DNA of 64,000 nucleotides, from positions 89 through 64,088 of the forward strand of contig CAWEHT010000143.1 in assembly GCA_963808455.1 (NCBI GenBank), written 5' to 3'. The notes under the pieces were generated by a model, which made no database searches, had not been told where the DNA came from, and saw only the letters and a program-made list of their open reading frames with translations. Below are positions 35,022 through 64,000 of the stretch, in pieces. This stretch comes from an uncultured Chloroflexia bacterium (GTDB taxonomy: Bacteria; Chloroflexota; Anaerolineae; CG2-30-64-16). Each line of letters opens with the position of its first letter. The first letter of the stretch is position 1. A program made the position numbers and the translations under genes.

Positions 35022-35051
35022 CGTGTAGCCTTTCGCCTGTAGGATGCCACT

Positions 35052-36024: not shown

Positions 36025-36823
36025 AACAAGATCTCGCCCTTGCCAAGCGCCACTAAGTCACCACAATAGCGGCGGAAAAGGCCGCCGCGGTAGGCGGCCG
36101 GGATCTCCACGCCTAGCGACGCGACGTGCCGGAGCAGCAGGTCAACATAAGAGGCTACAAACGTGCAGGAATATTTGAACGACGCCAACAGCGTAGTCGG
36201 CCCGAAGCCGACCAAGGTCCCGCGCTTCAAACCGGCGCCGGCGCGTTCGCCGAGCCGGCCCATCACCAGGATCGTGCCTGCGATCATGAAGACGCCGGTG
36301 TAGTCGCCGCTATTGCCCCCGATCACGATCAGCCCGCGCCGCATGCTCGAGCCCGCCTCGTTCCCCACGTTGCCGTCGAACGAGGATCACGCCGCGGTTC
36401 ATCCCCTTCGTGCTGCCGCGGTAGCCACCGCCCAGATCATTGCCGGCATTGCCACGAATGCGGATGGAACCGCCGTGCATCTCGGCGCCGGCCCAGTCCG
36501 CGACATTGCCGTTCACGACGATGGACCCGCCGCTCATCTCCGCGCCCAGGTGCATGCCGGCGTTGCCTTCCACGGTGATCCGGCCCTGGGTCATGCCGGC
36601 GCCGATCATCTTGACGCGCTCCAGATCTCCTTCGACCAGGATATCGGGTTGGCCGTCCTCGCCGATCTCGAAGAAGTCGCCCAGGCAGGCCAGCTGGTTG
36701 CCGCAGTTGGCGGGCAGCGCGCTGATCTCGAGCGGGCTCTTGCCGATGAACAGCTCTGGCCGGATCGTCTCGACCTCGATGGGGATCTGTGGCACCTCTC
36801 TGAGCTTCAAGGTTGTCATAGCT
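36009..36823 (-). CDS. fwdC: formylmethanofuran dehydrogenase subunit C; frameshift near 36370
   Basis: GXGXG beta-helix repeats (ITVEGNAGMHLGAEMSGGSIVVNGNV...); C-terminus GLIVIGGNSGDYTGVFMIAGTILVMG in the 36009-36368 ORF. Confidence 0.75.
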
Positions 36824-40684: not shown

Positions 40685-41034
40685 CAGTCCCTCCCGCCGC
40701 CCAACGCCCGCGCGACCACATCCTGAGTCTTGAAATCGGGCATGCCGGAAGCATAGGTTTCCGTGCCCGTCAGATCGCTGGTAGGTGGTCCGTAGGCAAT
40801 GAAAGCCATCCCCGCAGGCAGGTTGCCGGGCTTGCAATGCACGCAAGTCTGCCCGTATGGGCTGGTGAGCTCGACTTCGTCGCCGTTCTGCACCCCCAAG
40901 GCTGTCATGTCGCCGGCGTTCATCTCCAGAGTTGAAACGGCCTCGCGGTATTCTGCATTGTGCTTGCCCATGCTGATCCCGACACCTTGCTTGAGGATCC
41001 GGCCGACGACCAGCAGCAGCTTGATTTCAGGCAT
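40684..41034 (-). CDS. fwdD: formylmethanofuran dehydrogenase subunit D (molybdopterin-dinucleotide-binding domain)
   Basis: 116 aa; DMSO-reductase-family C-terminal-domain-like beta-barrel. Confidence 0.7.
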   Translation of the reverse strand: MPEIKLLLVVGRILKQGVGISMGKHNAEYREAVSTLEMNAGDMTALGVQNGDEVELTSPYGQTCVHCKPGNLPAGMAFIAYGPPTSDLTGTETYASGMPDFKTQDVVARALGGGRD

Positions 41035-42182
41035 ACAGTTCTCCTTTTAGCTCCCCTGCCCGGCGCACGAGGTTCATATAGCAAGAGCTGGCGGTGGGCC
41101 CATCGGCCAGGATGGTACAGACCGGATCGCCCAGCGCGATCTCCTCGCCCGGAAATGGTATATCGCGGATGCCGCGTTTGAGCCAATCGCGGGTGTCCGG
41201 GGTGCGGCAGTCGCGTTCCGCGAATAAGATGGCCTTGCCGTAGAAAGCTCGCGCAACCGCGGCAGGCCCGGGCGACACCCGACCCGGCAAGTATTTTTCT
41301 CGCACCGCCCGCGCATGCCAGCCAAACAACGGCACCCCGAGCGCTTGCTCGACCAGCTCCATGGACGCCGAATAGCGCGGATTGACCTCGAGCGGGCAAA
41401 TGCGCCCATCGTTCAATATGAAGTCCACGCCGTTGAGCCCGGCCAGGTGAAATTCGCGGGTCAGGCCGGCGACCAGCTCCTGCCGCGCGCGCCGCCAGTT
41501 CGGGACGGGCACGCTCGTCTTCCAGCGCCAGAGGGTAGATGTTGCCGCAATAGGTGAAGCCCGTGGCGCCAAATTCGGGCCGGCCGATCAGTTGCTCGCT
41601 GAGCCCAAGGAGCAGGGCATCCTCGCCGTTGGCCAGGAAAGCAGCCGAACAGCTCCGTCCGGCCACACATTCCTGTAAGAACCAGCCCGCTCCTACGAGA
41701 CCTTTGCCATCCCAGAAAGCGATGCCGTGCCCGCCACCGCTGCGCACCGGCTTGCGCAGCCAGCGCACGCCGGAATCCGAGGGCGGCGAAGCCCCCCCAA
41801 GAACCGTCTGCGGCACAGGGAAGCTATGACTCTGCAAGAAACCGGAGAGGGCCGGCCAGTGTCTGACCCGAGCCAGCACATCGGGGCTGTTGCCCAGCAT
41901 TTCTGCCGGCCGCGCAGCCAGCGCGGCGACGATCCTCGGATGGTTTTCGAGGCTGGAGGCATAGGCCACGGCATCATATGCCAGGCTGCAGCTGGCCTCG
42001 AAGAGCCTGGCAGGCTCGAAAGGCCAGCCGAAATCCCTTTTCAGCGAGTAGTTCTCGCAGCAGAGCTTTTGATCGTAGTCACCATAATAATCCAGGGTGA
42101 CGAACTCGAAGCCCGCGGCTTTGGCCGACTGGGCCAAAGCCCGGGTGCTCATGCCGGCGATCAGAATGCGCATGGCCGCCAA
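41027..42182 (-). CDS. ATP-grasp-domain protein of H4MPT/methanofuran islands (MfnD-like?); frameshift near 41570
   Basis: N-terminal MRILIAGMSTRALAQSA; C-terminal GVDFILNDGRICPLEVNPRYSASMEL in the 41027-41572 ORF. Confidence 0.5.
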
Positions 42183-43471: not shown

Positions 43472-44326
43472 CTACAACGCCTTACCGATGGCGTAGATTT
43501 CTTCGACGTCGAGCACCAGGTCGTTCTGCTCGAAGAGTCTGGCCACAGCCGCCCGGTGGATCTTCATCTTCAGCCCGCCGATGCCGAGGGCGCCAAAAGC
43601 CAACCTACCGTCGCGCTCTTTGCCGTCGTCGGTGGCCTTGATGCCTTCGATGCCCAGCGGCGGCACGGCGTTGATATCGGCGAGGACCCGCAGGGCCGGT
43701 CGAGCGGCCCACAGGGCTTTGGAAACGAGCTGGATGCCGGCCGCGCCCGCGGCCAGGGCCACGGCCGCCCCTTCCAGCGCCCTAGCTGCCGTGCCGTCAT
43801 CGGAGACCTCCGCCGGCAGGACTTCCAGGCCAAAACGGGCTTTGATTTCCTGGGCCGCCTGTTGCGCGCGGGCAAACACGCGCGACGTGAGCGTCACCCT
43901 GGCACCTTCCTTGGCCAGAAGAGTCGCCGCCCGGACGCCCACGGGGCCCGTGCCGGCGAAGATCGTGGCCACCTGGCCGGCCACCGGCATGGCGCGCGTG
44001 ATCTTCAACACGGCCGCGGCGGCAGTCGTATTGGAGCCGTTGGGGTCGGCCATGACCGAAACGCGCACCGGCCCGAAGAAGGCAGAAGCGGCGGCCTTCA
44101 GCATTTCTTCGCCCAGCGGCACCGAAGACCCACCGATGAAGATCGCGCTGTTCTTGAGCGCATCGCCACCGCGGGTGAACATGGCGCCATAGACCAGGCC
44201 TCGCACGTCTTTCACGGCCACATCGCCATACCCGATGACATGGTCCACGCCTGCGTCGTAGGCGGTAATGCAGTCAAAAGAACTCGGGTGTTTGTCGCTG
44301 TCGAGTTGTATCAGGAGTTTGTGCAT
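43472..44326 (-). CDS. mtdB: NAD(P)-dependent methylene-tetrahydromethanopterin dehydrogenase
   Basis: collinear with MtdA/MtdB (HKLLIQLDSD, AYDAGVDHVIGYG, FFGPVRVSVMADPNGSNTTAAA); 284 aa. Confidence 0.8.
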   Translation of the reverse strand: MHKLLIQLDSDKHPSSFDCITAYDAGVDHVIGYGDVAVKDVRGLVYGAMFTRGGDALKNSAIFIGGSSVPLGEEMLKAAASAFFGPVRVSVMADPNGSNTTAAAAVLKITRAMPVAGQVATIFAGTGPVGVRAATLLAKEGARVTLTSRVFARAQQAAQEIKARFGLEVLPAEVSDDGTAARALEGAAVALAAGAAGIQLVSKALWAARPALRVLADINAVPPLGIEGIKATDDGKERDGRLAFGALGIGGLKMKIHRAAVARLFEQNDLVLDVEEIYAIGKAL

Positions 44327-44816: not shown

Positions 44817-45764
44817 ATGATAAGTGTCAATCAACAGGCTGCCCTGATCGTTGCGGACATGGTCAGCCAGGCAGAGCGGCTCGGCATCAGTGCCACGAGC
44901 CTGGACTGTGGTACCCAGGTGATCGACGTCGGCCTCAGGTCGCCCGGCGGGCTGCTGGCCGGGCTGCAAACCGCCCGTGCCAGCATGGGCGGGATGGGCC
45001 AGGTCGAATTCCTGCCGCTGGACTTCGACGGTCTGTGGCTCCCGGGGGTCGGCATCACGGTTGACCAACCGGAAATCGGCTGCATGGCCTCGCAGTACGC
45101 CGGCTGGGGCATCCGCAAGCCCGGCTTCTTCGCCATCGGCTCTGGGCCGGCACGTGCCAGGGCCAGGGTCGAGCCGCTGTTTCAGAAGTTAGACTACGCC
45201 GACGATGCCGATCTCGCTGTGCTGATCCTCGAAGGCCAGAGCCCTGTCACTGAGGCGATGGCCGAATACATCGCACGCAAATGCCGGCTGCAACCCTCGG
45301 CGCTGACCCTCATCATGGCTCCGGCGGCCTGCCAGGCGGGCCTGGTCCAGCTTTCTGCCCGCGCCGTAGCAACCGGCATGCACAAGATGTTCAAGCTCGG
45401 TTTCGACGTACGCAAGGTGTTGCACGGCTACGGCAGCTGTCCCATCGCGCCGGTGGTTCCCGACGAAGACCTGGCCTCGGCCCGGGCCAACGATTGCGTC
45501 CTGTACGGCGCACGCGTGCAGTACGCGGTCCGGGCGGACGATGCCGAGCTGGCGGCGTTGATCGAGCGGCTCCCTTCCCTTTCGTCGCCCGAATGCGGCA
45601 CGCCCAGCTACGAGCTGTTCAAGCACTATGGCGGCTTCTACGACGTCGATCCGATGCTCTTCTGCCCGTCGGAAGTGACGATCAACAACCTCGCCACCGG
45701 GAAGACATTCCATTCCGGACATCCCCATCCGGAGGTGCTAAAGAAATCGCTGCTCGGCAACTAG
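44817..45764 (+). CDS. mch: methenyltetrahydromethanopterin cyclohydrolase, copy 2 (intact)
   Basis: 315 aa; full Mch motif set; the only plus-strand gene in the C1 island. Confidence 0.85.
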   Translation: MISVNQQAALIVADMVSQAERLGISATSLDCGTQVIDVGLRSPGGLLAGLQTARASMGGMGQVEFLPLDFDGLWLPGVGITVDQPEIGCMASQYAGWGIRKPGFFAIGSGPARARARVEPLFQKLDYADDADLAVLILEGQSPVTEAMAEYIARKCRLQPSALTLIMAPAACQAGLVQLSARAVATGMHKMFKLGFDVRKVLHGYGSCPIAPVVPDEDLASARANDCVLYGARVQYAVRADDAELAALIERLPSLSSPECGTPSYELFKHYGGFYDVDPMLFCPSEVTINNLATGKTFHSGHPHPEVLKKSLLGN

Positions 45765-49569: not shown

Positions 49570-50621
49570 AGCCCGGCCGGCACCAGATACTCGCGCCCAC
49601 TCCGGTGGCTGCTGCCGATGACCAGGCGATGGGCCGGCCCGCCATCGATCCGTTCGAGTTTGCCCTGGGCTTCGATAAGCTGGCCGGCATCTGCCGCCTG
49701 GGCAAACAACCCCTCATAGGAGCAGATCTGTTGGACCTGGGCCTGAGGGCCGTCGAGGATGGTGACCTGCTCGATCCCGTAAACGGCCGGCAAGTAGATG
49801 GCATCCGCCGCATCGGCCACGACCGCCTGCAGCCGGCAAACCCCGGCATCACGGTAGTAATGGTCGCCGTAGCTCTCGTGAATCTCCGTGTCGCTGCGCA
49901 CAGGGTGCAGCGATAGATAGCGATGGCCTTCGTAGTAGGCGAAATTCCAGCGGCCTCTCACAAGCCATTCGACCTGAGGGGCCGTCAACCCGTGATGGTC
50001 AATGATCTCGCGCCGCCAGCCGTCCATAAAGGTGGCATCTATGGGCCCGATGCCAGGCACGCCTCCCTGGGCGAGCGTGGCGCGCAGGCGCTCGACGGCA
50101 TCTCGCCCATAGACGGTGACGTCTATGTCGGAGAAGGAGGGGTCATGAATATTCAGGAGGATGGAGCCCGTGATGCCGAGATCCTCCGGCGGAATGCCTG
50201 TGGTACGCAGCAGGGCCTCCGCCAGGCGGGCAGCCTCCTCCTCCAGCGGGTCGGCCGGTCCGCCGGACAGCAGCTGTGCCAGGCGGGATTCAGGGCAATA
50301 GTAACGGCTGACCCGATCTTGCGGCACCATCGAGAAACGCATGTCGCGCACCGGGCAGTAATCGACGTAGGCCGGGAAATTCGCGTCCAGATAGTCCACG
50401 GTGTGGGCGACCTGATGGGCGTGGTAATAGGCGAGCTCTCGATGGTAGGCGGTGCCGCCACGCTGCCAGCGGCCGCGCGGCGCCGGCGAGTACTTGAGGT
50501 AAGCGGTGTACTTACCCGGGGGATGCAAATAGTCAACCACACAGAAGAGTAGCCCTTCGGTGGTCTCGATGAAGTCGCGATCTTTGGGCAGCCGGCCGGC
50601 GCCCATCACAGGTAGCCCCAC
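49566..50621 (-). CDS. Pol-beta-type nucleotidyltransferase-domain protein (COG1665-like), paralog 1
   Basis: GITGSILLNIHDPSFSDIDVTVYGRD NTase motif; paralog of the gene at 61635-62669. Confidence 0.45.
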   Translation of the reverse strand: MGLPVMGAGRLPKDRDFIETTEGLLFCVVDYLHPPGKYTAYLKYSPAPRGRWQRGGTAYHRELAYYHAHQVAHTVDYLDANFPAYVDYCPVRDMRFSMVPQDRVSRYYCPESRLAQLLSGGPADPLEEEAARLAEALLRTTGIPPEDLGITGSILLNIHDPSFSDIDVTVYGRDAVERLRATLAQGGVPGIGPIDATFMDGWRREIIDHHGLTAPQVEWLVRGRWNFAYYEGHRYLSLHPVRSDTEIHESYGDHYYRDAGVCRLQAVVADAADAIYLPAVYGIEQVTILDGPQAQVQQICSYEGLFAQAADAGQLIEAQGKLERIDGGPAHRLVIGSSHRSGREYLVPAGL

Positions 50622-51918
50622 CGTAAGTCCTCCTCCTGCATGTATCTCTTGTGCAGCCGCACGGCAAGCGCTGCTTTTTGCAGCTCCTTGCCGATATAAA
50701 AAGCGTGCGCCGGCTCGATGCTCCCGAGCTGATTGTACAGGGCCTGGATGTCGGTGCCTTTCAGGAAGAGACGGTTGTTGAAGATGAAGATGTTGTCGTC
50801 GTCGGTGAAGATCCGGAAGTTGCGGTCCTTGATGAGGGCCTGCATGGCGCGCAACTCGGCTTCGCTGTAGCCCTCGTGCGGCGGGTCCTTGATGGTGAGC
50901 AGGCTATCGTCGAGGTGTTTCGGCAGCATGTGATGGCTGCAGGCGTAGTGCATCAGCTTGCGTGCCCGATCCAGCTCACGGACGGCTCCGTGCGCCCAGC
51001 TGATCACCTCCGTCGTCAGGACATAATCGATGCCCAGCTCGGCGATGATCCCGGCCATGACACCATTGATCCCGGTCGAGTCGGCATCCGTCAGCTCGAT
51101 GAGATTGCCCAGCCCCATCAGCATCTCCGCCTGCGGGTGGCGGCGCCGGGTCTCGTAGAAGCGGTGCAAGGATTCGGCGAAGCCGAAGCTGATGGGGTTC
51201 AGGATGGGGTCGGCAATGAACGGCACATGCCAGCCCTCGAGCTGCGCCATGTTGCGTTCCAACGATTCGAGCCCCTGGTCGAAGTCGGGGATGACCACGA
51301 CGCGGCAATGCAGGTCCCGCGCGAGCTCCAGGTTGGTCGAATTGACGCTGAGGAGCAGGTCGATGCCCGCGCGGTCGGCCTCCAGGATGTCGGCGCTGTT
51401 GAAAGTATCGAGGCTGACCGTGTAGCCGCCGTTCTTGAGAGCGGCCACAGCCTCGCCGAGCCGCGGATAGTTGCCGTGGACCGGGCAGCCGAGGTCGATG
51501 ATGTCGGCACCGCTCTCGCGAAAGTATTCGGCCTGGGCCAGGACCAGGTCGAGCGGCATCTTGTGGGCGTCCACGATCTCGGCCAGGATCTTGGCGTGAT
51601 ACTCGCCGTAGCCGTCTAGCTGCCGCTTCTGGCCGAAGACCGCGGGCAGGTCTTTGAAATTTTCGGCCCTTTCTGGACGGGCAGGCCGAGGCTGTCGGCG
51701 ATCGGCGCGGTATCGCCCTGGCACAGGCCGGGGATCATGACCGCCTCGCACTGACGGGGATCTCTAAGATATTTCGCAATGAACCGCGTGTCCATGAGCG
51801 CCACGACCCAGATGGGCATCACGGCCACCTCGTAGGAGAAATCGGGCGCCATCCGGGTGAGCGTGGCGGCCAGCGCTTCGGCGGCCAGCTTGCCCGTCAC
51901 AAACAGGAAGCGAGGCAT
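50606..51918 (-). CDS. dihydropteroate-synthase-related pterin-binding protein (MptH-like), left-arm copy; frameshift near 51630
   Basis: N-terminal MPRFLFVTGKLAAEAL in ORF 51616-51918; body in ORF 50606-51751 (DIIDLGC, DTFNSADI). Confidence 0.5.
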
Positions 51919-52427
51919 TGAGCCATCTCCTCAACATTGCTGACAACTTTAACGCCGGGGAAAACTGCAGAGCTTCGCCGTGTTTTCCAGATCGATGGGC
52001 CTCGGGTAGACCTTGATGATATCGCCGTGGGGGCCGGTAGAATCCATCTCGGGAGCGAGATTCTGTGGGCAGCACGACGATGGGCACGCGCGGACTTGCC
52101 TGCCTGGGCGAACAGATTCGATACGAGCGAGTCGGAGATGCCGTGGACGAATTTGGCGACGGAGTTGGACGTGGCCGGAGCGACCAGCAGCACGCTGTAC
52201 ATGCCGTGCGCAAAGCCGGCCACAGCCGGCGAACTGGCCGTAGTCTCGCGCCGCACCCGCGCTCCGCCGACCCGCAGGAATTCTTGTAGCCGGTACATGC
52301 GGACCACCTCTTCGGCAGCTCGGGACAGGTAGATGTCTACCTGTGGATAAGTCAGCACGTGCGCGGCGCACGCCGACAGAAAATGCCCGGCTCCGGTGAC
52401 CGCCCAGGCTATCCTACGCTCGGCCAC
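51897..52427 (-). CDS. HFCD-family flavoprotein (AfpA/DmrX-like; possible dihydromethanopterin reductase), left-arm copy
   Basis: AWAVTGAGHFL and PATSNSVAKFVHGISDSLVSN flavoprotein motifs. Confidence 0.55.
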   Translation of the reverse strand: MAERRIAWAVTGAGHFLSACAAHVLTYPQVDIYLSRAAEEVVRMYRLQEFLRVGGARVRRETTASSPAVAGFAHGMYSVLLVAPATSNSVAKFVHGISDSLVSNLFAQAGKSARAHRRAAHRISLPRWILPAPTAISSRSTRGPSIWKTRRSSAVFPGVKVVSNVEEMAQCLASCL

Positions 52428-53465
52428 GCTTCACCTCCACGGCAGCATCGTGTCATCAGCAGCGTTGCCGAGCAGCAGCCGGTGCCAGGTGCCGGCAGAG
52501 CGCGACTCGACTTTCTCCAGGAGACCACTCGCTCGCACCAACTGGCCCTCCTGGGCTTGCTCACAGAAGCGCCCTCGATAGGAAACGATCTCTCGCAGAT
52601 GGGGGGCCGGCACGCCGTCGAGAAAAGTGACGTCTCCCACAGGATAGCGGCACGGCGTGAAGACGGCTTCCCTGGCATCCAGCACGGTGGCCCGATCACA
52701 GCGTGCCCCGCCGGTTCGTAGCACCGATCCCCATAGCGCTCGCCCAGATCCTGGGGCCGTAGCACAAAACGGAGGAAGTACGGGCGGCCACCGAACTCTC
52801 CCTGGTTGATCTTGTCCCGCTCGACGCCGATGAAATCTTCGAAGGCCATGTGCGTATCGGCAACGTGTTCCGCGTACAGCATCCGCTGGCCCGACGGATC
52901 GAGACGGCGCAACTCGGGGTAGGTGCCGGCGTCCAGCGCGCGATGCAGTGCGCCGGCACCGCCCGGCCGTCCTCTCTGCCGTAGACGGTTACGTCCAGGT
53001 CGGAGGCCGGCGTGTGCAGGCCGATCAAGAGGGAACCCGAAACGCCAAGCGCGCTTCATGGCACGCCGGCAGCCTGCCGAAGCAGGCCGGGGAAAGCGAC
53101 GCTGTCACGTATCACGGGATAGAGCAGCGGGCCGGTACGCAGTTCCTGCAGGCGCCGGCGAGGATCGTATCCGGGCCACATCCCCACGCCGCACGCCCTG
53201 GCAGGACAGCCTGACAGCTCGGCTCGAAGGCAAGAGGTAGTGCGGGGCATGAGCCCGCAGCCATTCTTCCCGCTCCGCAAAGTGATACAGCCGCCGGTAG
53301 CGCAGGCCGTCCTTTTGCCGTTCGCCGGCCGGGTCGGGCGCGTAGCGCAGGCACCCCAAGTAGCGCTCGGGAGGATGGACCAGGCCCTTGATGCGCAAAG
53401 AACAACCCCTCCAGAGTCTCTATGTAGTGGCTTTCGATCACCTCATCCGGCGAACATTCCATCAT
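52409..53465 (-). pseudogene. nucleotidyltransferase-domain protein, paralog 2, left-arm copy with multiple frameshifts
   Basis: matches the intact right-arm copy at 61635-62669 but is split across ORFs 53112, 52696 and 52409. Confidence 0.5.
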
Positions 53466-53518
53466 TGGCCTGATCTCCTCCTAGAAATTGACATGCAATG
53501 TAGCACGAATTAAAATCG

Positions 53519-54250
53519 GTGTCAACGGAGGCCCGCGTGCAGCTGCTGATCAGTGTGGTGAACGCCGGGGAAGTCGAGGCGGCCCTGTCCGGAGGCGCCG
53601 ATATCCTGGACATCAAGAACCCCGGCGAAGGCTCGCTGGGCGCGCCGGCGCCCGGCCTGATCCGGCAGGCCCGGCGCCTGGCGCCGCGGCCCCAGGCGGT
53701 CAGCGTTGCGATCGGCGACATGCCAAACCTGCCTGGCACGGCCGCGTCGGTGGCCCTGGGTGCGGCATCCTGCGGGGCCGACTACGTCAAGGTCGGGCTG
53801 TGGGGTCCGTGGACCGTGGGCGAGGCGGAGTCCCTCTTGCTGCTGAGGTTGGCGCCGCCTTGCGAGAGGCGCCGCGCTGCGTGTTGATCGCAGCGGCCTA
53901 CGCCACGCCGACCGCACCGGGACGCTCGACCCGCGGTTGCTGCCCGGGATTGCTGAGCGGGCGGGCGCGGCCGGCCGCCCTATCGACACAGCGATCAAGG
54001 ATGGCCATCGCCGACTGGACTTCCTGGCCCCGGAAGCGCTGCGGGCCCTGGCAGAACAGGCCGACGTGCCGGCCTGCTCTTCGCCCTGGCCGGCGCCCTC
54101 CAAGAAGCGGATCCCCTCGTGCTCCGCGACCTGGGAGCAGACGTCGCGGCATTCGGTCGGCCGCTGGCCGGGATGGGCAGCGGGCCGGCCCGCTGGACGC
54201 CGGGCGGGTGCGCCGGCTGCGCGTGATGCTGGCCACGCCTCTGGCGCAAC
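53519..54250 (+). CDS. MfnB-like (4-(hydroxymethyl)-2-furancarboxaldehyde-phosphate synthase / DUF556 family), left-arm copy; frameshift near 53860
   Basis: QLLISVVNAGEVEAAL..GADILDIKNPGEGSLGA; intact copy at 60844-61563. Confidence 0.55.
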
Positions 54251-54405
54251 CTTGATCCGGAAGCTTCCGGCGCCTTCTGAGCGCTGAACCGCCGCGCTGC
54301 TGGGCGGCGCCAGGTTCAGGCCAGCGCACATCCCGCGGCAATGGTGCCCGAATCGGCCGGCGATCTGGTCTCCCAACTCTCCATCGGGCCTGAATACGGC
54401 CGGGC

Positions 54406-55103
54406 TCACTTCCTGCCGGCCCGCAAACGGCTCAATGCTTCCGGATGCACGTGCCCAGCGTGCGCCCGGTCGCCGAGAAGTTCCGCCAGGCGCTCGGGGT
54501 GCTGGCCGTTGATGGCCAAGGTCTCCAGTTCCAGCCCCATCAGGACCACTGCAAGATAGTCGTCGACGCCGCCCGGCTGGCGGACGAGGTCTGCGACGTC
54601 GAGTTCCTGGCATGGCTCGGCGGGCTGGCCCGGCCGTGGATCTCCGGGTACAGGCCATCGACGTCTTTCAGGAGCACGAGGCACGCTGCGCCCGCGAGCC
54701 CGGCGATCCACGCGGCCAGGCTATCGGAGGTGACATCCCAGGAATTAGGCAGCGGGTCGGCCTGCAGCACCAGCGCGGCCGGCAAGAGGATGGGAAGGCG
54801 CCCATCGTCCGCGATCCGGCGGGCAGACCAGAGGTCCTGCACCGCGGAACTGCCCGGGATCAATTCCGCGAGGAGACAGCCATATTGGTCCATGGCCAGC
54901 AACGCCATGCGATGGGCCGCAGTCTCGCTCAGGCGATAGCGCCGGTACTGATAGCGCACCACATCGGCGAACTGGCCCCCGCCCGGCACGAGGAGGAGGC
55001 GATAATGCCGGCCCAGCTGGCCGAGCGCCTGGCCCAGGTGCTCCAGGTCCGGGCCACGACTGAGGCTGCCTCCAACCTTGAGCACCGCGTCGAACCCGTT
55101 CAT
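54406..55103 (-). CDS. amino-acid-kinase-family protein (H4MPT/MFR island orf21-type), left-arm copy; frameshift
   Basis: MNGFDAVLKVGGSL...LLLVPGGG; ATGA overlap with the upstream gene. Confidence 0.5.
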
Positions 55104-56146
55104 CGGCGTGCCTCCAGTTGTTCGGCGAGGAGGCGTGCCGCGGCCCAGCTCGGCGCGGCCGCGGCGACCGCGGGGTCCCGGCGCGCGCCGCGCCTCCGGA
55201 TGGGACAAACCCCAGGCGCCTGGCCGCCTCCTCGGCCAGGCTGGCGCCCATCCCCACGGCGATGATCGGGAAATCCGGGCGCCTGCCCAGCCGTGAAAGC
55301 ACCTGGAGCAAGCCCCGGCCGATCTGCGCCGATTTGCTGCCGCGGACAAAGGCGGCGATCGCGTCGATCTGGATGTCGCCAAGCTGTTCGGCATCGGCAC
55401 AGACCAGGCGTGCCAGCCGGCGGCGCGCCGCCGGAACCGTGGCAGGGCGCCCATCGGGGGTCGGGCAGGTGTAATCTTCCGGCGCCAGCTCCCCGAGCAC
55501 GAGATGCACGTCGCCGCTGATCGCAAAGTACTCCGATGAGACGGGGCACATCCGGCCACTTACCGGCACGGCCCGCACGATGGCTGCCAGATGGGTGCGC
55601 AACATGCCGGTATAGACCAGCTCGCCGGCCTGCAGCCGGGCCAGGTCCGTCCGGCCCTCGGCGGCCACCCGTCCGCCCAGGATAGGTATGATGTCGGTGG
55701 TCGTGCTTCCCACGTCGAGGAGCAGGCAGTCGGGGCAAGCGCGAGCGGCCCACAGCGCGCTGGCCAGCCAGTTGGCAGCGGCGAAGTCCAGCGGATGGGA
55801 ACACGCCCTCGGCCAGGGGCGAGAACTCGCCCGACAGGCTCAGGGTATAAGCCGGGCAACCCGGAAAGGCGCTCTCGAAGCTGTCCAGCACGAAGGTCAC
55901 CCCCTCGCGCTTCGTGGCAAAGACGTCAGACAGCTCCGCGGTCATAGTCAGCGCCATGGCGTCAGGAAAACCGCCGGCCAGCCGGGCCAGGGCGGCCTGC
56001 AGCACCTGCGGCAGGCGTTCTCTGGCATGCCGAATCTCGAAAGGCAGGCTCACCACGCGGGGGGCGCCCGGATCGCGGATCGCGTCGTCGATCCGGGTAG
56101 CCTTGACATTCGCCCCACCGACATCCCAGCCTATCACGGTTGCCAT
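55100..56146 (-). CDS. hydantoinase/oxoprolinase-N-terminal-like 'H4MPT-linked C1 transfer pathway' protein, left-arm copy; frameshifts
   Basis: MATVIGWDVGGANVKATRID; LLLDVGSTTTDIIPI motif in the mirror copy. Confidence 0.5.
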   Translation of the reverse strand: MATVIGWDVGGANVKATRIDDAIRDPGAPRVVSLPFEIRHARERLPQVLQAALARLAGGFPDAMALTMTAELSDVFATKREGVTFVLDSFESAFPGCPAYTLSLSGEFSPLAEGVFPSAGLRRCQLAGQRAVGRSRLPRLPAPRRGKHDHRHHTYPGRTGGRRGPDGPGPAAGRRAGLYRHVAHPSGSHRAGRAGKWPDVPRLIGVLCDQRRRASRARGAGAGRLHLPDPRWAPCHGSGGAPPAGTPGLCRCRTAWRHPDRRDRRLCPRQQIGADRPGLAPGAFTAGQAPGFPDHRRGDGRQPGRGGGQAPGVCPIRRRGARRDPAVAAAAPSWAAARLLAEQLEARR

Positions 56147-57199
56147 AGCGCCTCCCCTAGCCCGCCCGGCCGATCCTTGCCAAAGCTGGCCTGCCCGGCC
56201 AGGGCGACCGAGGCCGGCAAGACGCCCTGCGTGCAGGCTTCCCACATGGCGCGGGCCAGGTTGATGCCGGCGACGCGCCGCAAGCCAATGTAGGCTGTCG
56301 TCAGGCGCGGGTTGAGCTCGACGGCCCAGGCCCGGCTGTCGTCCAGCACCAGATCGACGCCCACATACCCTTGCAGCCCGGGTATGGCGCCTGCCGCCGC
56401 CACGGCCACGGCCAGCGCCTCGTCATGCAAGGGATGCGCCAGCGGCACGGTGCCCCCGCGATAGCTGAACGGGCGGCCTACCCGGATATCCTGGCCGTTG
56501 AGGCTCAGAGGCAGGACGCGCTCGCCCGCAACCAGGAGCGAAACGCTGGCGGGCTTGCCGGGCAAATAGCGCTGGAGTAGAATCCGTGGCCGGGGCTCGA
56601 TGAGATCGGTCGATGCGAGCGCCAGCGCCAGCTCACGATCGTCGCGGGCCAACGAGATGCCCTCGCAGCCGACGCCGTCGAACGGGCTTCACCACCAGCG
56701 GGTAGCCCAGGCCCAGTTTGGCGGGCCTCGCCGGGCCTGGATCGGCCAGGCAGGTAAGCGGCGTTGGCACCCCGGCGGCCTGCCAACGCTGATAGCAAGC
56801 CCATTTGTCGCCCGCCAGCTGCACGGCCGCCGGGGCACTGCCAATCAGGCAGGCACCGGCCTCCAGCACCCACCGGTTGAGTTCGGCCAGGAGGCCGGCG
56901 GTCTCCGGCGCGATGACCAGCGCGGCGTCGCAACGGGCCAATGCGGCCCGGAAGGCCGGAGCATGCCCGCCGGGCGCGACCCGGATGATGTGCTCTGCCG
57001 GCAGATCCAGGTCAGCCAGGCGCCAGTCGAGGGTGCTGAGGGTACGAACGCCACCCCAGCGCGCGGAGTCGGCCAGGACCGCCTGCAGCATGGCAGCCCC
57101 TTCGGCCGCCAGCTCGCCTGGCAGCTCGCGCGAGCTCAGGCCGCCGCCCGTGACATACTCGTGAACGAACAACCAAGGAAGTGCACCCATGCGTATCAT
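56134..57199 (-). CDS. ATP-grasp ligase (second island-type ATP-grasp), left-arm copy; frameshift near 56640
   Basis: MIRMGALPWLFVHEYVTGGG...YPLVVKPV...VELNPRLT. Confidence 0.5.
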
Positions 57200-57551
57200 T
57201 CCGGTTATGGACCTGCTGGGCGAGAAAGCCGTGCACGCCGTCAGAGGCGAGCGATCACATTATCTGCCGATCACGAACCGGCTGACAGCCAACGGCGATC
57301 CGTTCGCCCTGGCCCGGGCCTACCGCGAGCAATTTGGGCTGGCTGAGCTCTACGTTGCCGATCTCGATGCCATCCAGAGGCGCGGCAGCCACGCCGGACT
57401 CATCGCCCGCCTGGCCGAGGAGTCAGGGCTGGCGCTGATGGTCGATGCCGGGGCTGCCGACGCCGAGCAAGCCCGGCAGGTCCTGGCACTGGGCGCCCGG
57501 AAGGTCATCTTCGGGGCGGAGACGGCTCCGGACTGGGACGCGGCTCGCACC
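57189..57551 (+). pseudogene. HisA/HisF-family (beta/alpha)8-barrel gene, 5' ~121 codons only, truncated at the fold point of the inverted duplication
   Basis: MRIIPVMDLLGEKAVHAVRGER...; the ORF continues into its own reverse complement after ~57551. Confidence 0.55.
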
Positions 57552-57913
57552 CTGGCGACCGCGTCCCAGTCCGGAGCCGTCTCCGCCCCGAAGATGACCT
57601 TCCGGGCGCCCAGTGCCAGGACCTGCCGGGCTTGCTCGGCGTCGGCAGCCCCGGCATCGACCATCAGCGCCAGCCCTGACTCCTCGGCCAGGCGGGCGAT
57701 GAGTCCGGCGTGGCTGCCGCGCCTCTGGATGGCATCGAGATCGGCAACGTAGAGCTCAGCCAGCCCAAATTGCTCGCGGTAGGCCCGGGCCAGGGCGAAC
57801 GGATCGCCGTTGGCTGTCAGCCGGTTCGTGATCGGCAGATAATGTGATCGCTCGCCTCTGACGGCGTGCACGGCTTTCTCGCCCAGCAGGTCCATAACCG
57901 GAATGATACGCAT
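57552..57913 (-). pseudogene. HisA/HisF-family gene fragment, mirror copy
   Basis: mirror of 57189-57551. Confidence 0.5.
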
Positions 57914-58968
57914 GGGTGCACTTCCTTGGTTGTTCGTTCACGAGTATGTCACGGGCGGCGGCCTGAGCTCGCGCGAGCTGCCAGGCGAGCTGGCGGCCGA
58001 AGGGGCTGCCATGCTGCAGGCGGTCCTGGCCGACTGCGCGCGCTGGGGTGGCGTTCGTACCCTCAGCACCCTCGACTGGCGCCTGGCTGACCTGGATTTG
58101 CCGGCAGAGCACATCATCCGGGTCGCGCCCGGCGGGCATGCTCCGGCCTTCCGGGCCGCATTGGCCCGTTGCGACGCCGCGCTGGTCATCGCGCCGGAGA
58201 CCGCCGGCCTCCTGGCCGAACTCAACCGGTGGGTGCTGGAGGCCGGTGCCTGCCTGATTGGCAGTGCCCCGGCGGCCGTGCAGCTGGCGGGCGACAAATG
58301 GGCTTGCTATCAGCGTTGGCAGGCCGCCGGGGTGCCAACGCCGCTTACCTGCCTGGCCGATCCAGGCCCGGCGAGGCCCGCCAAACTGGGCCTGGGCTAC
58401 CCGCTGGTGGTGAAGCCCGTCCACGGCGTCGGCTGCGAGGGCATCTCGTTGGCCCGCGACGATCGTGGAGCTGGCGCTGGCGCTCGCATCGACCGATCTC
58501 ATCGAGCCCCGGCCACGGATTCTACTCCAGCGCTATTTGCCCGGCAAGCCCGCCAGCGTTTCGCTCCTGGTTGCGGGCGAGCGCGTCCTGCCTCTGAGCC
58601 TCAACGGCCAGGATATCCGGGTAGGCCGCCCGTTCAGCTATCGCGGGGGCACCGTGCCGCTGGCGCATCCCTTGCATGACGAGGCGCTGGCCGTGGCCGT
58701 GGCGGCGGCAGGCGCCATACCCGGGCTGCAAGGGTATGTGGGCGTCGATCTGGTGCTGGACGACAGCCGGGCCTGGGCCGTCGAGCTCAACCCGCGCCTG
58801 ACGACAGCCTACATTGGCTTGCGGCGCGTCGCCGGCATCAACCTGGCCCGCGCCATGTGGGAAGCCTGCACGCAGGGCGTCTTGCCGGCCTCGGTCGCCC
58901 TGGCCGGGCAGGCCAGCTTTGGCAAGGATCGGCCGGGCGGGCTAGGGGAGGCGCTATGGCAACCGTGA
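57903..58968 (+). CDS. ATP-grasp ligase, right-arm (mirror) copy; frameshift near 58470
   Basis: mirror of 56134-57199. Confidence 0.45.
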
Positions 58969-60002
58969 TAGGCTGGGATGTCGGTGGGGCGAATGTCAAG
59001 GCTACCCGGATCGACGACGCGATCCGCGATCCGGGCGCCCCCCGCGTGGTGAGCCTGCCTTTCGAGAATCTGGCATGCCAGAGACGCCTGCCGCAGGTGC
59101 TGCAGGCCGCCCTGGCCCGGCTGGCCGGCGGTTTTCCTGACGCCATGGCGCTGACTATGACCGCGGAGCTGTCTGACGTCTTTGCCACGAAGCGCGAGGG
59201 GGTGACCTTCGTGCTGGACAGCTTCGAGAGCGCCTTTCCGGGTTGCCCGGCTTATACCCTGAGCCTGTCGGGCGAGTTCTCGCCCCTGGCCGAGGCGCGT
59301 TCCCATCCGCTGGACTTCGCCGCTGCCAACTGGCTGGCCGAGCGCGCTGTGGGCCGCTCGCTTGCCCCGACTGCCTGCTCCTCGACGTGGGAAGCACGAC
59401 CACCGACATCATACCTATCCTGGGCGGACGGGTGGCCGCCGAGGGCCGGACGGACCTGGCCCGGCTGCAGGCCGGCGAGCTGGTCTATACCGGCATGTTG
59501 CGCACCCATCTGGCAGCCATCGTGCGGGCCGTGCCGGTAAGTGGCCGGATGTGCCCCGTCTCATCGGAGTACTTTGCGATCAGCGGCGACGTGCATCTCG
59601 TGCTCGGGGAGCTGGCGCCGGAAGATTACACCTGCCCGACCCCCGATGGGCGCCCTGCCACGGTTCCGGCGGCGCGCCGCCGGCTGGCACGCCTGGTCTG
59701 TGCCGATGCCGAACAGCTTGGCGACATCCAGATCGACGCGATCGCCGCCTTTGTCCGCGAGCAGCAAATCGCGCAGATCGGCCGGGGCTTGCTCCAGGTG
59801 CTTTCACGGCTGGGCAGGCGCCCGGATCTCCCGATCATCGCCGTGGGGATGGGCGCCAGCCTGGCCGAGGAGGCGGCCAGGCGCCTGGGGTTTGTCCCAT
59901 CCGGAGGCGCGGCGCGCTCGGGACCCCGCGGTCGCCGCGGCCGCGCCGAGCTGGGCCGCGGCACGCCTCCTCGCCGAACAACTGGAGGCACGCCGATGAA
60001 CG
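58956..60002 (+). CDS. hydantoinase-like H4MPT-linked C1 transfer pathway protein, right-arm copy; frameshifts
   Basis: mirror of 55100-56146. Confidence 0.45.
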
Positions 60003-60666
60003 GGTTCGACGCGGTGCTCAAGGTTGGAGGCAGCCTCAGTCGCGGCCCGGACCTGGAGCACCTGGGCCAGGCGCTCGGCCAGCTGGGCCGGCATTATCGC
60101 CTCCTCCTCGTGCCGGGCGGGGGCCAGTTCGCCGATGTGGTGCGCTATCAGTACCGGCGCTATCGCCTGAGCGAGACTGCGGCCCATCGCATGGCGTTGC
60201 TGGCCATGGACCAATATGGCTGTCTCCTCGCGGAATTGATCCCGGGCAGTTCCGCGGTGCAGGACCTCTGGTCTGCCCGCCGGATCGCGGACGATGGGCG
60301 CCTTCCCATCCTCTTGCCGGCCGCGTGGTGCTGCAGGCCGACCCGCTGCCTAATTCCTGGGATGTCACCTCCGATAGCCTGGCCGCGTGGATCGCCGGGC
60401 TCGCGGGCGCAGCGTGCCTCGTGCTCCTGAAAGACGTCGATGGCCTGTACCCGGCAGATCCACGGCCGGGCCAGCCCGCCGAGCCATGCCAGGAACTCGA
60501 CGTCGCAGACCTCGTCCGCCAGCCGGGCGGCGTTGACGACTATCTTGCAGTGGTCCTGATGGGGCTGGAACTGGAGACCTGGGCCATCAACGGCCAGCAC
60601 CCCGAGCGCCTGGCGGAACTTCTGGCGACCGGGCGCACGCTGGGCACGTGCATCCGGAAGCATTGA
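59996..60666 (+). CDS. amino-acid-kinase-family protein, right-arm copy; frameshift near 60320
   Basis: mirror of 54406-55103. Confidence 0.45.
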
Positions 60667-60843
60667 GCCGTTTGCGGGCCGGCAGGAAGTGAGCCCGGCC
60701 GTATTCAGGCCCGATGGAGAGTTGGGAGACCAGATCGCCGGCCGATTCGGGCACCATTGCCGTGGGATGTGCGCTGGCCTGAACCTGGGGCGCGCCCAGA
60801 GCGCGGCGGTTCAGCGCTCAGAAGGCGCCGGGAAGCTTCCGGA

Positions 60844-61563
60844 TCAAGGTTGCGCCAGAGGCGTGGCCAGCATCGCGTGCAGCCGGCGCACCCGCCCGGC
60901 GTCCAGCGGGCCGGCCCGCTGCCCATCCCGGCAAGCAGCCGACCGAATGCCGGCAACGTCTGCTCCCAGGTCGCGGAGCACGAGGAGATCCGCTTCTTGG
61001 AGGGCGCCGGCCAGGGCGAAGAGCAGGCCGGCCGCGTGGGCCTGTTGTGCCAGGGCCCGCAGCGCTTCCGGGGCCAGGAAGTCCAGTAGGCGATGGCCAT
61101 CCTTGATCGCTGTGTCGATAAGGCAGCCGGCCGCGCCCGCCCGCTCGGCGATCCGAGGCAGCAACCGCGGGTCGAGCGTCCCGGTGCGGTCGGCGTCGGC
61201 GTAGGCCGCTGCGATCAACGCGCAGCGCGGCGCCTCTCGCAAGGCGGCGCCAACCTCGCGGAAGAGGGACTCCGCCTCGCCCGCGGTCCGCGGACCCCAC
61301 AGCCCGACCTTGACGTAGTCGGCCCCGCAGGATGCCGCACCCAGGGCCGCCAGCGCGGCCGTGCCAGGCAGGTTTGGCATGTCGCCGATCGCAACGCTGA
61401 CCGCCTGGGGCCGCGGCGCCAGGCGCCGGACCTGCCGGATCAGGCCGGGCGCAGGCGCGCCCAGCGAGCCTTCGCCGGGGTTCTTGATGTCCAGGATATC
61501 GGCGCCTCCGGCCAGGGCCGCCTCGACTTCCCCGGCGTTCACCACACTGATCAGCAGCTGCAT
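60844..61563 (-). CDS. MfnB-like (DUF556) protein, right-arm copy (intact, 239 aa)
   Basis: mirror of 53519-54250; single ORF. Confidence 0.55.
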   Translation of the reverse strand: MQLLISVVNAGEVEAALAGGADILDIKNPGEGSLGAPAPGLIRQVRRLAPRPQAVSVAIGDMPNLPGTAALAALGAASCGADYVKVGLWGPRTAGEAESLFREVGAALREAPRCALIAAAYADADRTGTLDPRLLPRIAERAGAAGCLIDTAIKDGHRLLDFLAPEALRALAQQAHAAGLLFALAGALQEADLLVLRDLGADVAGIRSAACRDGQRAGPLDAGRVRRLHAMLATPLAQP

Positions 61564-61634
61564 CGCGGGCCTCCGTTGACACCGATTTTAATTCGTGCTA
61601 CATTGCATGTCAATTTATCGCGGAGATCAGGCCA

Positions 61635-62669
61635 ATGATGGAATGTTCGCCGGATGAGGTGATCGAAAGCCACTACATAGAGACTCTGGAGGGGTTGTTC
61701 TTCGCCGTCAAGGGCCTGGTCCATCCTCCCGAGCGCTACTTGGGGTGCCTGCGCTACGCGCCCGACCCGGCCGGCGAACGGCAAAAGGACGGCCTGCGCT
61801 ACCGGCGGCTGTATCACTTTGCGGAGCAGGAGGATTGGCTGCGGGCTCATGCCCCGCACTGCCTTGCCTTCGAGCCGAGCTGTCAGGCTGTCCTGCAGAG
61901 CGTGCGGCGTGGGGATGTGGCCCGGATCTACGATCCTCGCCGGCGCCTGCAGGAACTGCGTACCGGCCCGCTGCTCTATCCCGTGATACGTGACAGCGTC
62001 GCTTTCGCCGGCCTGCTTCGGCAGGCTGCCGGCGTGCCGTGGAGCGCGCTTGGCGTTTCGGGTTCCCTCTTGATCGGCCTGCACACGCCGGCCTCCGACC
62101 TGGACGTAACCGTCTACGGCAGAGAGGACGGCCGGGCGGTGCAGCGCGCGCTCCATCGCGCGCTGGACGCCGGCACCTACCCCGAGTTGCGCCGTCTCGA
62201 TCCGTCGGGCCAGCGGATGCTGTACGCGGAACGCGTTGCCGATACGCACATGGCCTTCGAAGATTTCATCGGCGTCGAGCGGGACAAGATCAACCAGGGA
62301 GAGTTCGGTGGCCGCCCGTACTTCCTCCGTTTTGTGCTACGGCCCCAGGATCTGGGCGAGCGCTATGGGGATCGGTGCTACGAACCGGCGGGGCACGCTG
62401 TGATCCGGGCCACCGTGCTGGATGCCAGGGAAGCCGTCTTCACGCCGTGCCGCTATCCTGTGGGAGACGTCACTTTTCTCGACGGCGCGCCGGCCCCCCA
62501 TCTGCGAGAGATCGTTTCCTATCGAGGGCGCTTCTGTGAGCAAGCCCAGGAGGGCCAGTTGGTGCGAGCGAGTGGTCTCCTGGAGAAAGTCGAGTCGCGC
62601 TCTGCCGGCACCTGGCACCGGCTGCTGCTCGGCAACGCTGCTGATGACACGATGCTGCCGTGGAGGTGA
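61635..62669 (+). CDS. nucleotidyltransferase-domain protein, paralog 2, right-arm copy (intact, 344 aa)
   Basis: GVSGSLLIGLHTPASDLDVTVYGRE; C-terminal OB-like region. Confidence 0.45.
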   Translation: MMECSPDEVIESHYIETLEGLFFAVKGLVHPPERYLGCLRYAPDPAGERQKDGLRYRRLYHFAEQEDWLRAHAPHCLAFEPSCQAVLQSVRRGDVARIYDPRRRLQELRTGPLLYPVIRDSVAFAGLLRQAAGVPWSALGVSGSLLIGLHTPASDLDVTVYGREDGRAVQRALHRALDAGTYPELRRLDPSGQRMLYAERVADTHMAFEDFIGVERDKINQGEFGGRPYFLRFVLRPQDLGERYGDRCYEPAGHAVIRATVLDAREAVFTPCRYPVGDVTFLDGAPAPHLREIVSYRGRFCEQAQEGQLVRASGLLEKVESRSAGTWHRLLLGNAADDTMLPWR

Positions 62670-62672
62670 AGC

Positions 62673-63199
62673 GTGGCCGAGCGTAGGATAGCCTGGGCGG
62701 TCACCGGAGCCGGGCATTTTCTGTCGGCGTGCGCCGCGCACGTGCTGACTTATCCACAGGTAGACATCTACCTGTCCCGAGCTGCCGAAGAGGTGGTCCG
62801 CATGTACCGGCTACAAGAATTCCTGCGGGTCGGCGGAGCGCGGGTGCGGCGCGAGACTACGGCCAGTTCGCCGGCTGTGGCCGGCTTTGCGCACGGCATG
62901 TACAGCGTGCTGCTGGTCGCTCCGGCCACGTCCAACTCCGTCGCCAAATTCGTCCACGGCATCTCCGACTCGCTCGTATCGAATCTGTTCGCCCAGGCAG
63001 GCAAGTCGCGCGTGCCCATCGTCGTGCTGCCCACAGAATCTCGCTCCCGAGATGGATTCTACCGGCCCCCACGGCGATATCATCAAGGTCTACCCGAGGC
63101 CCATCGATCGGAACAGTGCGAAGCTCTGCAAGTTTTCCCGGCGTTAAAGTTGTCAGCAATGTTGAGGAGATGGCTCAATGCCTCGCTTCCTGTTTGTGA
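62673..63199 (+). CDS. HFCD-family flavoprotein, right-arm copy; frameshifts
   Basis: mirror of 51897-52427. Confidence 0.45.
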
Positions 63200-64000
63200 C
63201 GGGCAAGCTGGCCGCCGAAGCGCTGGCCGCCACGCTCACCCGGATGGCGCCCGATTTCTCCTACGAGGTGGCCGTGATGCCCATCTGGGTCGCGGCGCTC
63301 ATGGACACGCGGTTCATTGCGAAATATAGAGATCCCCGTCAGTGCGAGGCGGTCATGATCCCCGGCCTGTGCCAGGGCGATACCACGCAGATCGCCGACA
63401 GCCTCGGCCTGCCCGTCCAGAAAGGGCCGAAAGATCTCAAAGACCTGCCCGCGGTCTTCGGCCAGAAGCGGCAGCTAGACGGCTACGGCGAGATCTCGCC
63501 AAGATCCTGGCCGAGATCGTGGACGCCCACAAGATGCCGCTCGACCTGGTCCTGGCCCAGGCCGAATAGTTTCGCGAGAGCGGTGCCGACATCGTCGACC
63601 TCGGCTGCCCGGTCCACGGCAACTATCCGCGGCTCGGCGAGGCTGTGGCCGCTCTCAAGAACGGCGGCTACACGGTCAGCCTCGATACTTTCAACAGCGC
63701 CGACATCCTGGAGGCCGACCACCGCGGGCATCGACCTGCTCCTCAGCGTCAATTCGACCAACCTGGAGCTCGCGCGGGACCTGCATTGCCCGCGTCGTGG
63801 TCATCCCCGACTTCGACCAGGGGCTCGAATCGTTGGAACGCAACATGGCGCAGCTCGAGGCTGGCATGTGCCGTTCATTGCCGACCCCATCCTGAACCCC
63901 ATCAGCTTCGGCTTCGCCGAATCCTTGCACCGCTTCTACGAGACCCGGCGCGGCCACCCGCAGGCGGAGATGCTGATGGGGCTGGGCAATCTCATCGAGC
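63178..64000 (+). CDS. MptH-like pterin-binding protein, right-arm copy (partial at the window end; frameshifts)
   Basis: MPRFLFVTGKLAAEALAATL...; mirror of 50606-51918. Confidence 0.45.
   Translation, partial: MPRFLFVTGKLAAEALAATLTRMAPDFSYEVAVMPIWVAALMDTRFIAKYRDPRQCEAVMIPGLCQGDTTQIADSLGLPVQKGPKDLKDLPAVFGQKRQLDGYGEISPRSWPRSWTPTRCRSTWSWPRPNSFARAVPTSSTSAARSTATIRGSARLWPLSRTAATRSASILSTAPTSWRPTTAGIDLLLSVNSTNLELARDLHCPRRGHPRLRPGARIVGTQHGAARGWHVPFIADPILNPISFGFAESLHRFYETRRGHPQAEMLMGLGNLIE

Follow-up and report, generated by a model that had tools for sequence, protein, structure and literature searches.

The window, that is the whole 64,000-nucleotide stretch of DNA analysed here, closes with a large inverted duplication, and we put the probability at roughly 85% that its right arm, from 57559 to the contig end, is not genome but half of a foldback molecule which was read by a noisy long-read platform and along which the assembler extended the contig. 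Judged from the sequence, an artefact is strongly favoured over a palindrome formed in vivo, without being proven. This reading rests on a right arm that is terminal, on relatives that run on natively past the fold, on a junction that is both native and self-priming, on differences between the arms that resemble errors and on arms about ten times noisier than their surroundings. The initial annotation had likewise preferred an artefact to a real palindrome, and the terminal right arm, the continuation in relatives and codon-blind errors at about ten times the density of the flanks all speak for that preference.

An inverted-repeat search of the window showed 51094-57543 to be mirrored by 57559-64000 in blocks that chain inward and are 94-100% complementary. 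In a global alignment the left arm (51094..57543) and the reverse complement of the right arm (57559..64000) were about 98.3% identical over about 6,450 bp, with 67 substitutions and 42 indel events (109 places), just as the sequence right of the fold had been described as the reverse complement of the left with scattered indels and substitutions. The inverted repeat is confirmed to be genuinely in the sequence, far above chance expectation. As in a foldback, the two halves are the same locus on opposite strands with coinciding breakpoints and form a near-perfect palindrome. The left arm is the genomic copy, contiguous and syntenic with unique flank, and the right arm is the extra mirror-image copy, which reaches the window end. 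The source contig (NCBI/ENA) is 64,594 bp long and ends at most 594 bp past the window, so that the right arm has no exit into unique sequence before the contig end (the last 594 bp or less lying outside the window) and the palindrome can be no larger than about 14.1 kb; the earlier estimate of at least 13 kb was thus near the full size. The same inverted-repeat search made no second chimera visible in the remaining 51 kb of the window.

Pfam matches in the arms comprised pterin-binding/DUF4346, flavoprotein, a weak NTase, 4-HFC-P synthase (MfnB), amino-acid kinase, hydantoinase_A, ATP-grasp and His_biosynth, in agreement with the gene labels proposed initially, for the NTase-like gene weakly. 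Gene order and frames in the left arm were delineated through synteny and frameshift-aware alignment to proteins of the relatives L003 and L002. Together with Pfam, this placed on the minus strand an MptH-like pterin-binding gene (50609-51998), the flavoprotein (51900-52421), the NTase-like gene (52443-53691; Pfam match weak), the amino-acid kinase (about 54444-55191), the hydantoinase-like gene (55213-56311) and ATP-grasp (56149-57253), and on the plus strand MfnB 4-HFC-P synthase (53537-54234) and the N-terminal half of a hisA-like gene (57189-57543). The right arm carries their mirror copies, with the hisA-like N-terminal half (57913-57539) and MfnB (61563-60865) on the minus strand, and ATP-grasp (57849-58953), the hydantoinase-like gene (58791-59984), the amino-acid kinase (59929-60654), the NTase-like gene (61409-62657) and the flavoprotein (62679-63196) on the plus strand, followed by the mirror copy of the MptH-like gene (63172-63999+), which is cut by the window end.

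The fold interrupts the hisA-like gene, which is about 252 codons long in relatives. It had been said to be cut after about 121 codons; the cut stands, and the count becomes 118 codons up to 57543 or 125 native codons when the centre is included. Reading across the fold produces a chimeric 187-aa ORF (57350..57913, minus strand) made of the 125 native hisA-like codons and an out-of-frame read-through of the opposite arm. This ORF is deposited as the predicted protein P0001 (100% identity) on a single NCBI/ENA contig, and its mirror twin in the opposite arm (57189-57752, plus strand) was absent from the contig index on exact look-up, as were P0001 and the other window ORFs looked up there.

Comparison with relatives, which the initial annotation had suggested, shows what follows the N-terminal half elsewhere, namely the C-terminal half of the hisA-like gene and MptA-HPPK, both missing from the window. 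An exact 40-mer scan of GTDB genomes gave no match, and the same 40-mer in JGI metagenomes led to one relative, L001, whose DNA is 90% identical to both arms up to the fold and then runs on natively. In each of the three closest relatives (L001, L002 and L003) the order is ATP-grasp (minus), full-length hisA-like (plus) and MptA-HPPK (minus). A long hisA-like match was present at 80/80 genome loci; 76 of these matches run beyond residue 230 of the 252-residue query, and the shortest, on a 2-kb contig, stops at residue 206. In a homology search, neither the hisA-like C-terminal half nor MptA-HPPK had a homologue in the window. A search of the public protein set did not bring up the organism's own MptA-HPPK but the protein of L001 itself (100%) and otherwise identities of at most 68%, so that the claim that the hisA-like gene normally continues rests on relatives and not on the same genome.

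The junction itself is composed of native sequence. Its centre, described earlier as 16 nt (57544-57559), is 15 nt long (57544..57558) and is not foreign, as alignment with L001 identifies it as the native continuation of the hisA-like gene; on the minus strand it reads TCGCCAGGGTGCGAG, where L001 has TCGCCAGGGTGCGCG. It is bounded by a 5-nt inverted repeat, CGCGG (57539-57543) and CCGCG (57559-57563), a junction microhomology spanning 57539..57563 that is also found in the native gene of L001 and that appears to be the priming or template-switch point. In DNA folds a natural hairpin has its 6-nt loop and inner 4-bp stem within the centre, and the native strand ending in ...CCGCG forms an imperfect 9-bp hairpin (5-bp + 4-bp stem, 6-nt loop) of -10 kcal/mol with its 3' end paired, which makes this strand a ready self-primer. 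A comparable complement of the 3'-terminal 5-mer 3-20 nt upstream occurs at just 2.9% of window positions, and in a background scan of the window only 0.2% of 34-mers folded at -10 kcal/mol or below with the last 5 nt paired. The join lies at short complementarity between a 3' end and a new template on the same molecule, and the junction looks like one left by snap-back self-priming, or by template switching, where a small natural hairpin forms. SMRTbell and ONT adapter cores gave zero matches anywhere in the window with up to 3 mismatches allowed, and a missed hairpin adapter (PacBio SMRTbell or ONT 2D) was rejected on this ground and on the native gene sequence of the centre. Among the routes proposed initially, the missed hairpin adapter and the 2D-like read fall away and MDA-type snap-back remains as one that fits the junction. 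The native asymmetric centre and the lack of an adapter also indicate that the chimeric molecule was physically real and not a software concatenation.

The differences between the arms carry the marks of read error. Frameshift-aware alignment located 20 frameshifts in the left arm and 14 in the right, mostly at differing places, while substitutions fell on codon positions 1/2/3 in the proportions 12/15/14, were mostly non-synonymous and in one case made a stop codon. Codon-neutral substitutions and frameshifting indels of this kind point to read errors and not divergence, and strain variation was rejected as their source on the same substitutions and on indels that frameshift both copies. By homology there were 34 frameshifts in 12.9 kb of arms against 3 in about 12 kb of flank, a density about 10 times that of the flank, and a reference-free scan gave 16 candidates in 12 kb against 10 in 52 kb elsewhere. 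Within the unique flank, 46.1-51.6 kb is clean; sporadic frameshifts occur in the flanks too, which together with the independent indels and codon-blind substitutions of the arms fits a noisy long-read assembly. The 109 differences with their independent indels imply that the two arms were derived separately from noisy reads. The possibility of a raw-read right arm beside a polished left arm was discarded, as each arm has errors of its own, in patches that alternate. A real palindrome, too, would be expected to show high noise in its two arms if the polisher had dropped multi-mapping reads.

Strand-displacing polymerases self-prime by snap-back, or switch template, during MDA or library repair. 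On the reading we prefer, a strand of the hisA-like gene would have ended, or a nascent strand stalled, just past ...CGCGG-TCGCCAGGGTGCGAG-CCGCG, and its 3' end would have folded on itself through the natural imperfect hairpin with its 5-bp and 4-bp stem and 6-nt loop. Extension of the folded 3' end by a polymerase along its own strand would give a hairpin-capped duplex that is read as the left arm, the native loop and the reverse complement of the left arm; a strand-displacing polymerase switching to the displaced strand at the same 5-nt complementarity would leave an identical product. An assembler following such a foldback read would make the contig double back and stop, and the true continuation would be lost, that is the C-terminal half of the hisA-like gene and then, most likely, the convergent MptA-HPPK gene. 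Reads from the one real copy would be split between two identical arms, or go unused in polishing, which may have left both arms near raw-read quality. We infer from these features that the event took place in vitro, as we do the enzyme involved and a nanopore-type platform.

In-vivo fold-back inversions and palindromic duplications arise at short inverted repeats after a break, as in yeast and cancer genomes, and such a rearrangement in at least some cells of the population is the foremost rival, which we consider improbable; a double-strand break within the hisA-like gene, or a fork stalled there, would have been repaired with the 3' tail snapping back or the template being switched at this natural hairpin, and long reads would have sampled the product. 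A short inverted microhomology, a native spacer and a site of stable hairpin are what such events leave; the microhomology and native loop are an identical signature for both origins, a junction of this kind might in principle arise in cells, and the native asymmetric centre without adapter fits a physically real molecule in either case. Real fold-back inversions have many non-symmetric supporting reads and exit into unique sequence, whereas the duplication here shares with them the short inverted repeat, native spacer and mirror duplication and yet is terminal on its contig, with no exit on the right and the contig end at most 594 bp past the window end, is laden with errors and disrupts a conserved gene cluster. 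It would destroy a gene that is full length in all relatives and remove the expected MptA-HPPK neighbour, and the roughly tenfold noise of the arms better fits a few reads, or the reads of one copy spread over two arms, than a fixed duplication. Bacteria are not known to maintain palindromes that span several kb around a short spacer, as these are cut by nucleases of the SbcCD type, and this counts further against an origin in vivo. It appears, if anything, slightly less probable still that the foldback formed in cells of this uncultured Anaerolineae-like bacterium and that a palindromic fragment of at least 13 kb persisted or recurred enough to be assembled. The base rate of foldback artefacts, roughly 0.1-4% of long reads (PMC12870357), also weighs against the inversion.

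Two further explanations were weighed. A purely algorithmic misassembly without any chimeric molecule, in which the graph joins a contig to its own reverse complement at a short inverted repeat, would suit a fold that sits at an inverted repeat, and assembly graphs are known to yield palindromic unitigs and inverted loops as artefacts (PMC9528984). Such a join calls for about k-1 bases of inverted overlap and yields exactly identical arms, but the repeat here is just 5+4 bp, the arms show 109 differences that include independent indels, and turning round in the graph at a palindromic k-mer would not give an asymmetric native 15-nt loop; a palindromic unitig of a de Bruijn or bidirected graph was rejected on these differences, and we hold this explanation to be very unlikely. 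A covalently closed hairpin telomere of a linear replicon (Borrelia or N15 type), with the fold as the true replicon end, would account for a terminal palindrome, as reads around such ends give terminal inverted duplications. The fold, however, falls midway through a conserved biosynthetic gene that runs on in the 90%-identical L001 and all other relatives, the turn is a 15-nt asymmetric coding piece with no non-coding telomere-like sequence, and no telomere resolvase was noticed in the window, though without a systematic search; a natural replicon end inside a conserved gene was rejected, and its probability is close to negligible.

A class of foldback artefact reads has been documented for ONT and PacBio data; such reads are attributed to library preparation and often have no adapter between their halves (Heinz, Meyerson & Li 2026, BMC Genomics 27:144, PMC12870357). 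The near-perfect palindrome, native centre and missing adapter described here match them, with the difference that those were single reads compared to a reference and the putative artefact here lies within an assembled, deposited contig and its predicted proteins. That study offers no junction mechanism, and the hairpin-primed junction is our reading of the present sequence. The inverted chimeras of MDA, in which a displaced 3' end re-primes on the same molecule to give an inverted join, are similar (Lasken & Stockwell 2007, BMC Biotechnol 7:19, PMC1855051); inversions make up more than 85% of MDA chimeras, and more than 70% are primed at 2-21 nt of complementarity, compared with 5 nt here, or 9 bp with the inner stem, and they usually carry an intervening deletion of variable size, whereas the "deletion" here is just the 15-nt loop. 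Inverted duplicates are also known to lower nanopore base-calling accuracy (PMC7229812). On contig-end palindromes in long-read assemblies, we found nothing specific in the literature beyond the graph-theory paper (PMC9528984).

If the artefact reading holds, the deposited 64.6-kb contig contains about 6.5-7 kb of false sequence. Seven genes of the tetrahydromethanopterin/methanofuran cofactor cluster are then spuriously doubled, many of the copies frameshifted, and an eighth, the hisA-like gene, is cut off. NCBI/ENA-derived protein collections already include at least one 187-aa chimeric "protein" (P0001). Estimates of copy number, completeness/contamination and pathway content for the genome bin would be skewed, and the cluster would seem to be without mptA. 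A palindrome at a contig end, with a small hairpin supplying a native loop and a burst of errors in each arm, may serve as a diagnostic recipe. Had the duplication arisen in vivo, it would be a rare, direct single-molecule view of hairpin-primed palindrome formation in an environmental bacterium; the evidence is against this, and the significance of the finding appears to be practical and not biological.

The repeat search of the window recovered inverted-repeat blocks forming a colinear chain, 94-100% complementary, from 51094/64000 inward to 57543/57559, with 15 nt separating the innermost arms of the palindrome. The left limit of 51094 arises solely because the window stops at 64000. In the global alignment of 51094-57551 with the reverse complement of 57552-64000, the ~6,450 bp compared contain 67 substitutions as well as 42 indel events, and the block chain and this alignment bear out the inverted duplication proposed in the initial annotation. 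Its gene labels were also confirmed by Pfam and by alignment to proteins of related loci: the arms encode an MptH-like pterin-binding protein, a flavoprotein, an NTase-like protein, the 4-HFC-P synthase MfnB, an amino-acid kinase, a hydantoinase-like protein and an ATP-grasp protein, and the fold interrupts a His_biosynth (hisA-like) gene. As the left arm and its unique flank are contiguous and syntenic in two Anaerolineae MAGs (loci L002 and L003), it is the left arm that is genuine, the right one being the additional copy.

A search of 5.8 billion proteins with the 125 native N-terminal residues of the hisA-like product gave one 100% match, a 187-aa protein (P0001) identical in sequence to the chimeric ORF on the minus strand at 57350-57913. 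NCBI and ENA place it on one contig only, 64,594 bp long; therefore the window is the whole contig minus 594 bp, which answers the earlier suggestion to locate the contig end. The right arm is terminal: no more than ~7.0 kb separate the fold from the contig end, and in the assembly this arm has no exit into unique sequence.

The 40-mer immediately left of the fold matched one JGI metagenome contig, L001 (Ga0326727_10078384, 4,640 bp), to which both arms are ~90% identical as far as the fold. Beyond it L001 runs on for 2.8 kb without counterpart in the window. This stretch encodes the C-terminal half of the hisA-like protein (252 aa in full), a 484-aa HPPK + FolE2/MptA fusion in convergent orientation, and a hemerythrin. 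The comparison with related genomes that had been advised revealed a common gene order in L001, L002 and L003, namely ATP-grasp (-), full-length hisA-like (+) and MptA-HPPK (-). A long hisA-like match was present in all 80 genome loci recovered with this protein, extending beyond query residue 230 of 252 in 76 of them, and the shortest, from a contig of 2 kb, stops at residue 206. No MptA-HPPK homologue was found in the window and, besides L001's own protein, the search for the organism's own MptA-HPPK returned nothing closer than 68%; the native continuation is therefore drawn from the relatives.

Alignment of L001 with both window strands identified the 15-nt centre as native sequence on the minus strand, ...GGACTGGGA-CGCGG-TCGCCAGGGTGCGAG-CCGCG, after which the window reverses (TCCCAGTCC...) and L001 proceeds (GTGCCGG...). 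CGCGG/CCGCG is a 5-nt inverted repeat pre-existing in the native gene. As DNA, the native 3' end folds into one stem of 5 + 4 bp with a single bulge, capped by a 6-nt loop (-10 kcal/mol), its 3' terminus being base-paired, and the corresponding site of L001 folds in the same way. Such a site is uncommon: 2.9% of window positions have a 3'-terminal 5-mer with its complement 3-20 nt upstream, and among random 34-mers 0.2% reach -10 kcal/mol or lower while pairing their last five bases. The window is free of SMRTbell and ONT adapter cores. The native centre, the self-pairing hairpin and the lack of an adapter rule out both an unrecognised hairpin adapter and software joining of template and complement reads, and point to snap-back (self-primed) synthesis of a physical molecule, or to its equivalent, a template switch to the displaced strand. 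Chimeras from strand displacement are for the most part inversions whose priming involved 2-21 nt of complementarity (PMC1855051), and foldback artefact reads are a known category in data from ONT and PacBio, judged to be library-preparation products in which the adapter between the halves is often absent (PMC12870357).

Frameshift-aware protein-to-DNA alignment with L003 and L002 proteins as reference placed 20 frameshifts in the left and 14 in the right arm, mostly at different positions and in agreement with the arm-to-arm indels. The ATP-grasp gene is disrupted in both arms (56680 and 58467), the NTase-like and MfnB genes are shattered in the left arm and intact in the right, and the MptH-like gene is intact in the left arm (50609-51656) and has four shifts in the right. 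Where the reference frame is intact, in two genes, substitutions fall 12/15/14 on codon positions 1/2/3, are mostly non-synonymous and in one case create a stop codon, and therefore do not represent strain polymorphism or divergence; the differences are errors. Between 53700-54300 (left) and 60800-61400 (right), many differences are T in the left arm and C in the right in a G_G context (CGCG to CGTG at 53810, 53817, 53882 and 54224; CGGCGG to CGGTGG at 53751), and the MfnB frame stays intact in the right arm. These differences may be systematic miscalls specific to one strand, perhaps where a motif is methylated.

In the flanks, the frameshift-aware aligner detected three frameshifts in ~12 kb (33.3-40.7 kb and 46.1-50.8 kb), all recovered by a reference-free GC-periodicity Viterbi scan, whose candidates number ~10 for 1-52 kb and 16 for 52-64 kb. 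Thus the contig is a long-read assembly that still carries residual indels, at a roughly ten-fold worse level in both arms. The isolated flank frameshifts (~33771, ~35457 and ~36378), seen by homology and periodicity scan, affect otherwise conserved genes, among them one Mch copy and a neighbouring gene of the ATP-grasp region, and resemble leftover indel errors of long reads more than pseudogenes. Noise in the arms would be expected if the reads of one real copy were divided over two identical arms, if polishing ignored multi-mapping reads, or if a single foldback read supplied most of both arms; inverted duplicates are also known to lower nanopore accuracy (PMC7229812). The outermost ~550 bp of the left arm, adjoining unique sequence, are clean, which fits unique read anchoring there.

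With a probability of roughly 0.85, the right arm is a snap-back foldback artefact without counterpart in the real genome, a reading that accounts for every observation. A foldback molecule would have formed at the natural hairpin of the hisA-like gene and been read on a noisy long-read platform, and the assembler would then have extended the contig with its sequence. We infer the in vitro timing of the fold event from base rates and context. A real fold-back inversion in vivo would leave an identical junction, but is improbable, as the palindrome is terminal on the contig, a conserved gene and its neighbour are lost, the noise pattern of the arms is unfavourable, and long palindromes are known to be unstable in bacteria. 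Still less probable is a misassembly in the graph alone, without any chimeric molecule, which the 109 arm differences exclude (cf. PMC9528984), and a hairpin telomere is hardly credible at a fold site that is coding and conserved, which excludes it. The preference of the initial annotation for a foldback or chimeric artefact therefore stands, its missed hairpin adapter gives way to a native, adapter-free hairpin junction, and the cause is sharpened to snap-back synthesis.

The contig is most closely related to MAGs of the Anaerolineae (Chloroflexota). The stretch 33291-57543 of the window holds an apparently full tetrahydromethanopterin/methanofuran-linked C1 module together with a cofactor-biosynthesis cluster, with FTR/FhcD (36816-37703, -), an FhcA-like amidohydrolase (37693-39378, -), FhcB-like (39362-40846, -), MtdB-like (43472-44326, -), MfnB (53537-54234, +), DUF1464, DUF2193, a GHMP kinase and DUF447. 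Also in this stretch, two methenyl-H4MPT cyclohydrolase (Mch) paralogues (35058-36024, -; 44817-45764, +) form a diverged inverted pair with 70-73% DNA identity, unrelated to the terminal palindrome. In the window the fhc/mch block (33291-41317) is upstream, ~7 kb before the cofactor cluster; in L003 (12687-20705) it is downstream of hisA-like/mptA. This is either a lineage rearrangement or a further sign that contig order near the end should be checked. The fold-created ORF P0001 sits in NCBI- and ENA-derived collections as a predicted protein with a Pfam His_biosynth annotation. The practical value of the finding is that it flags a contaminated public record.
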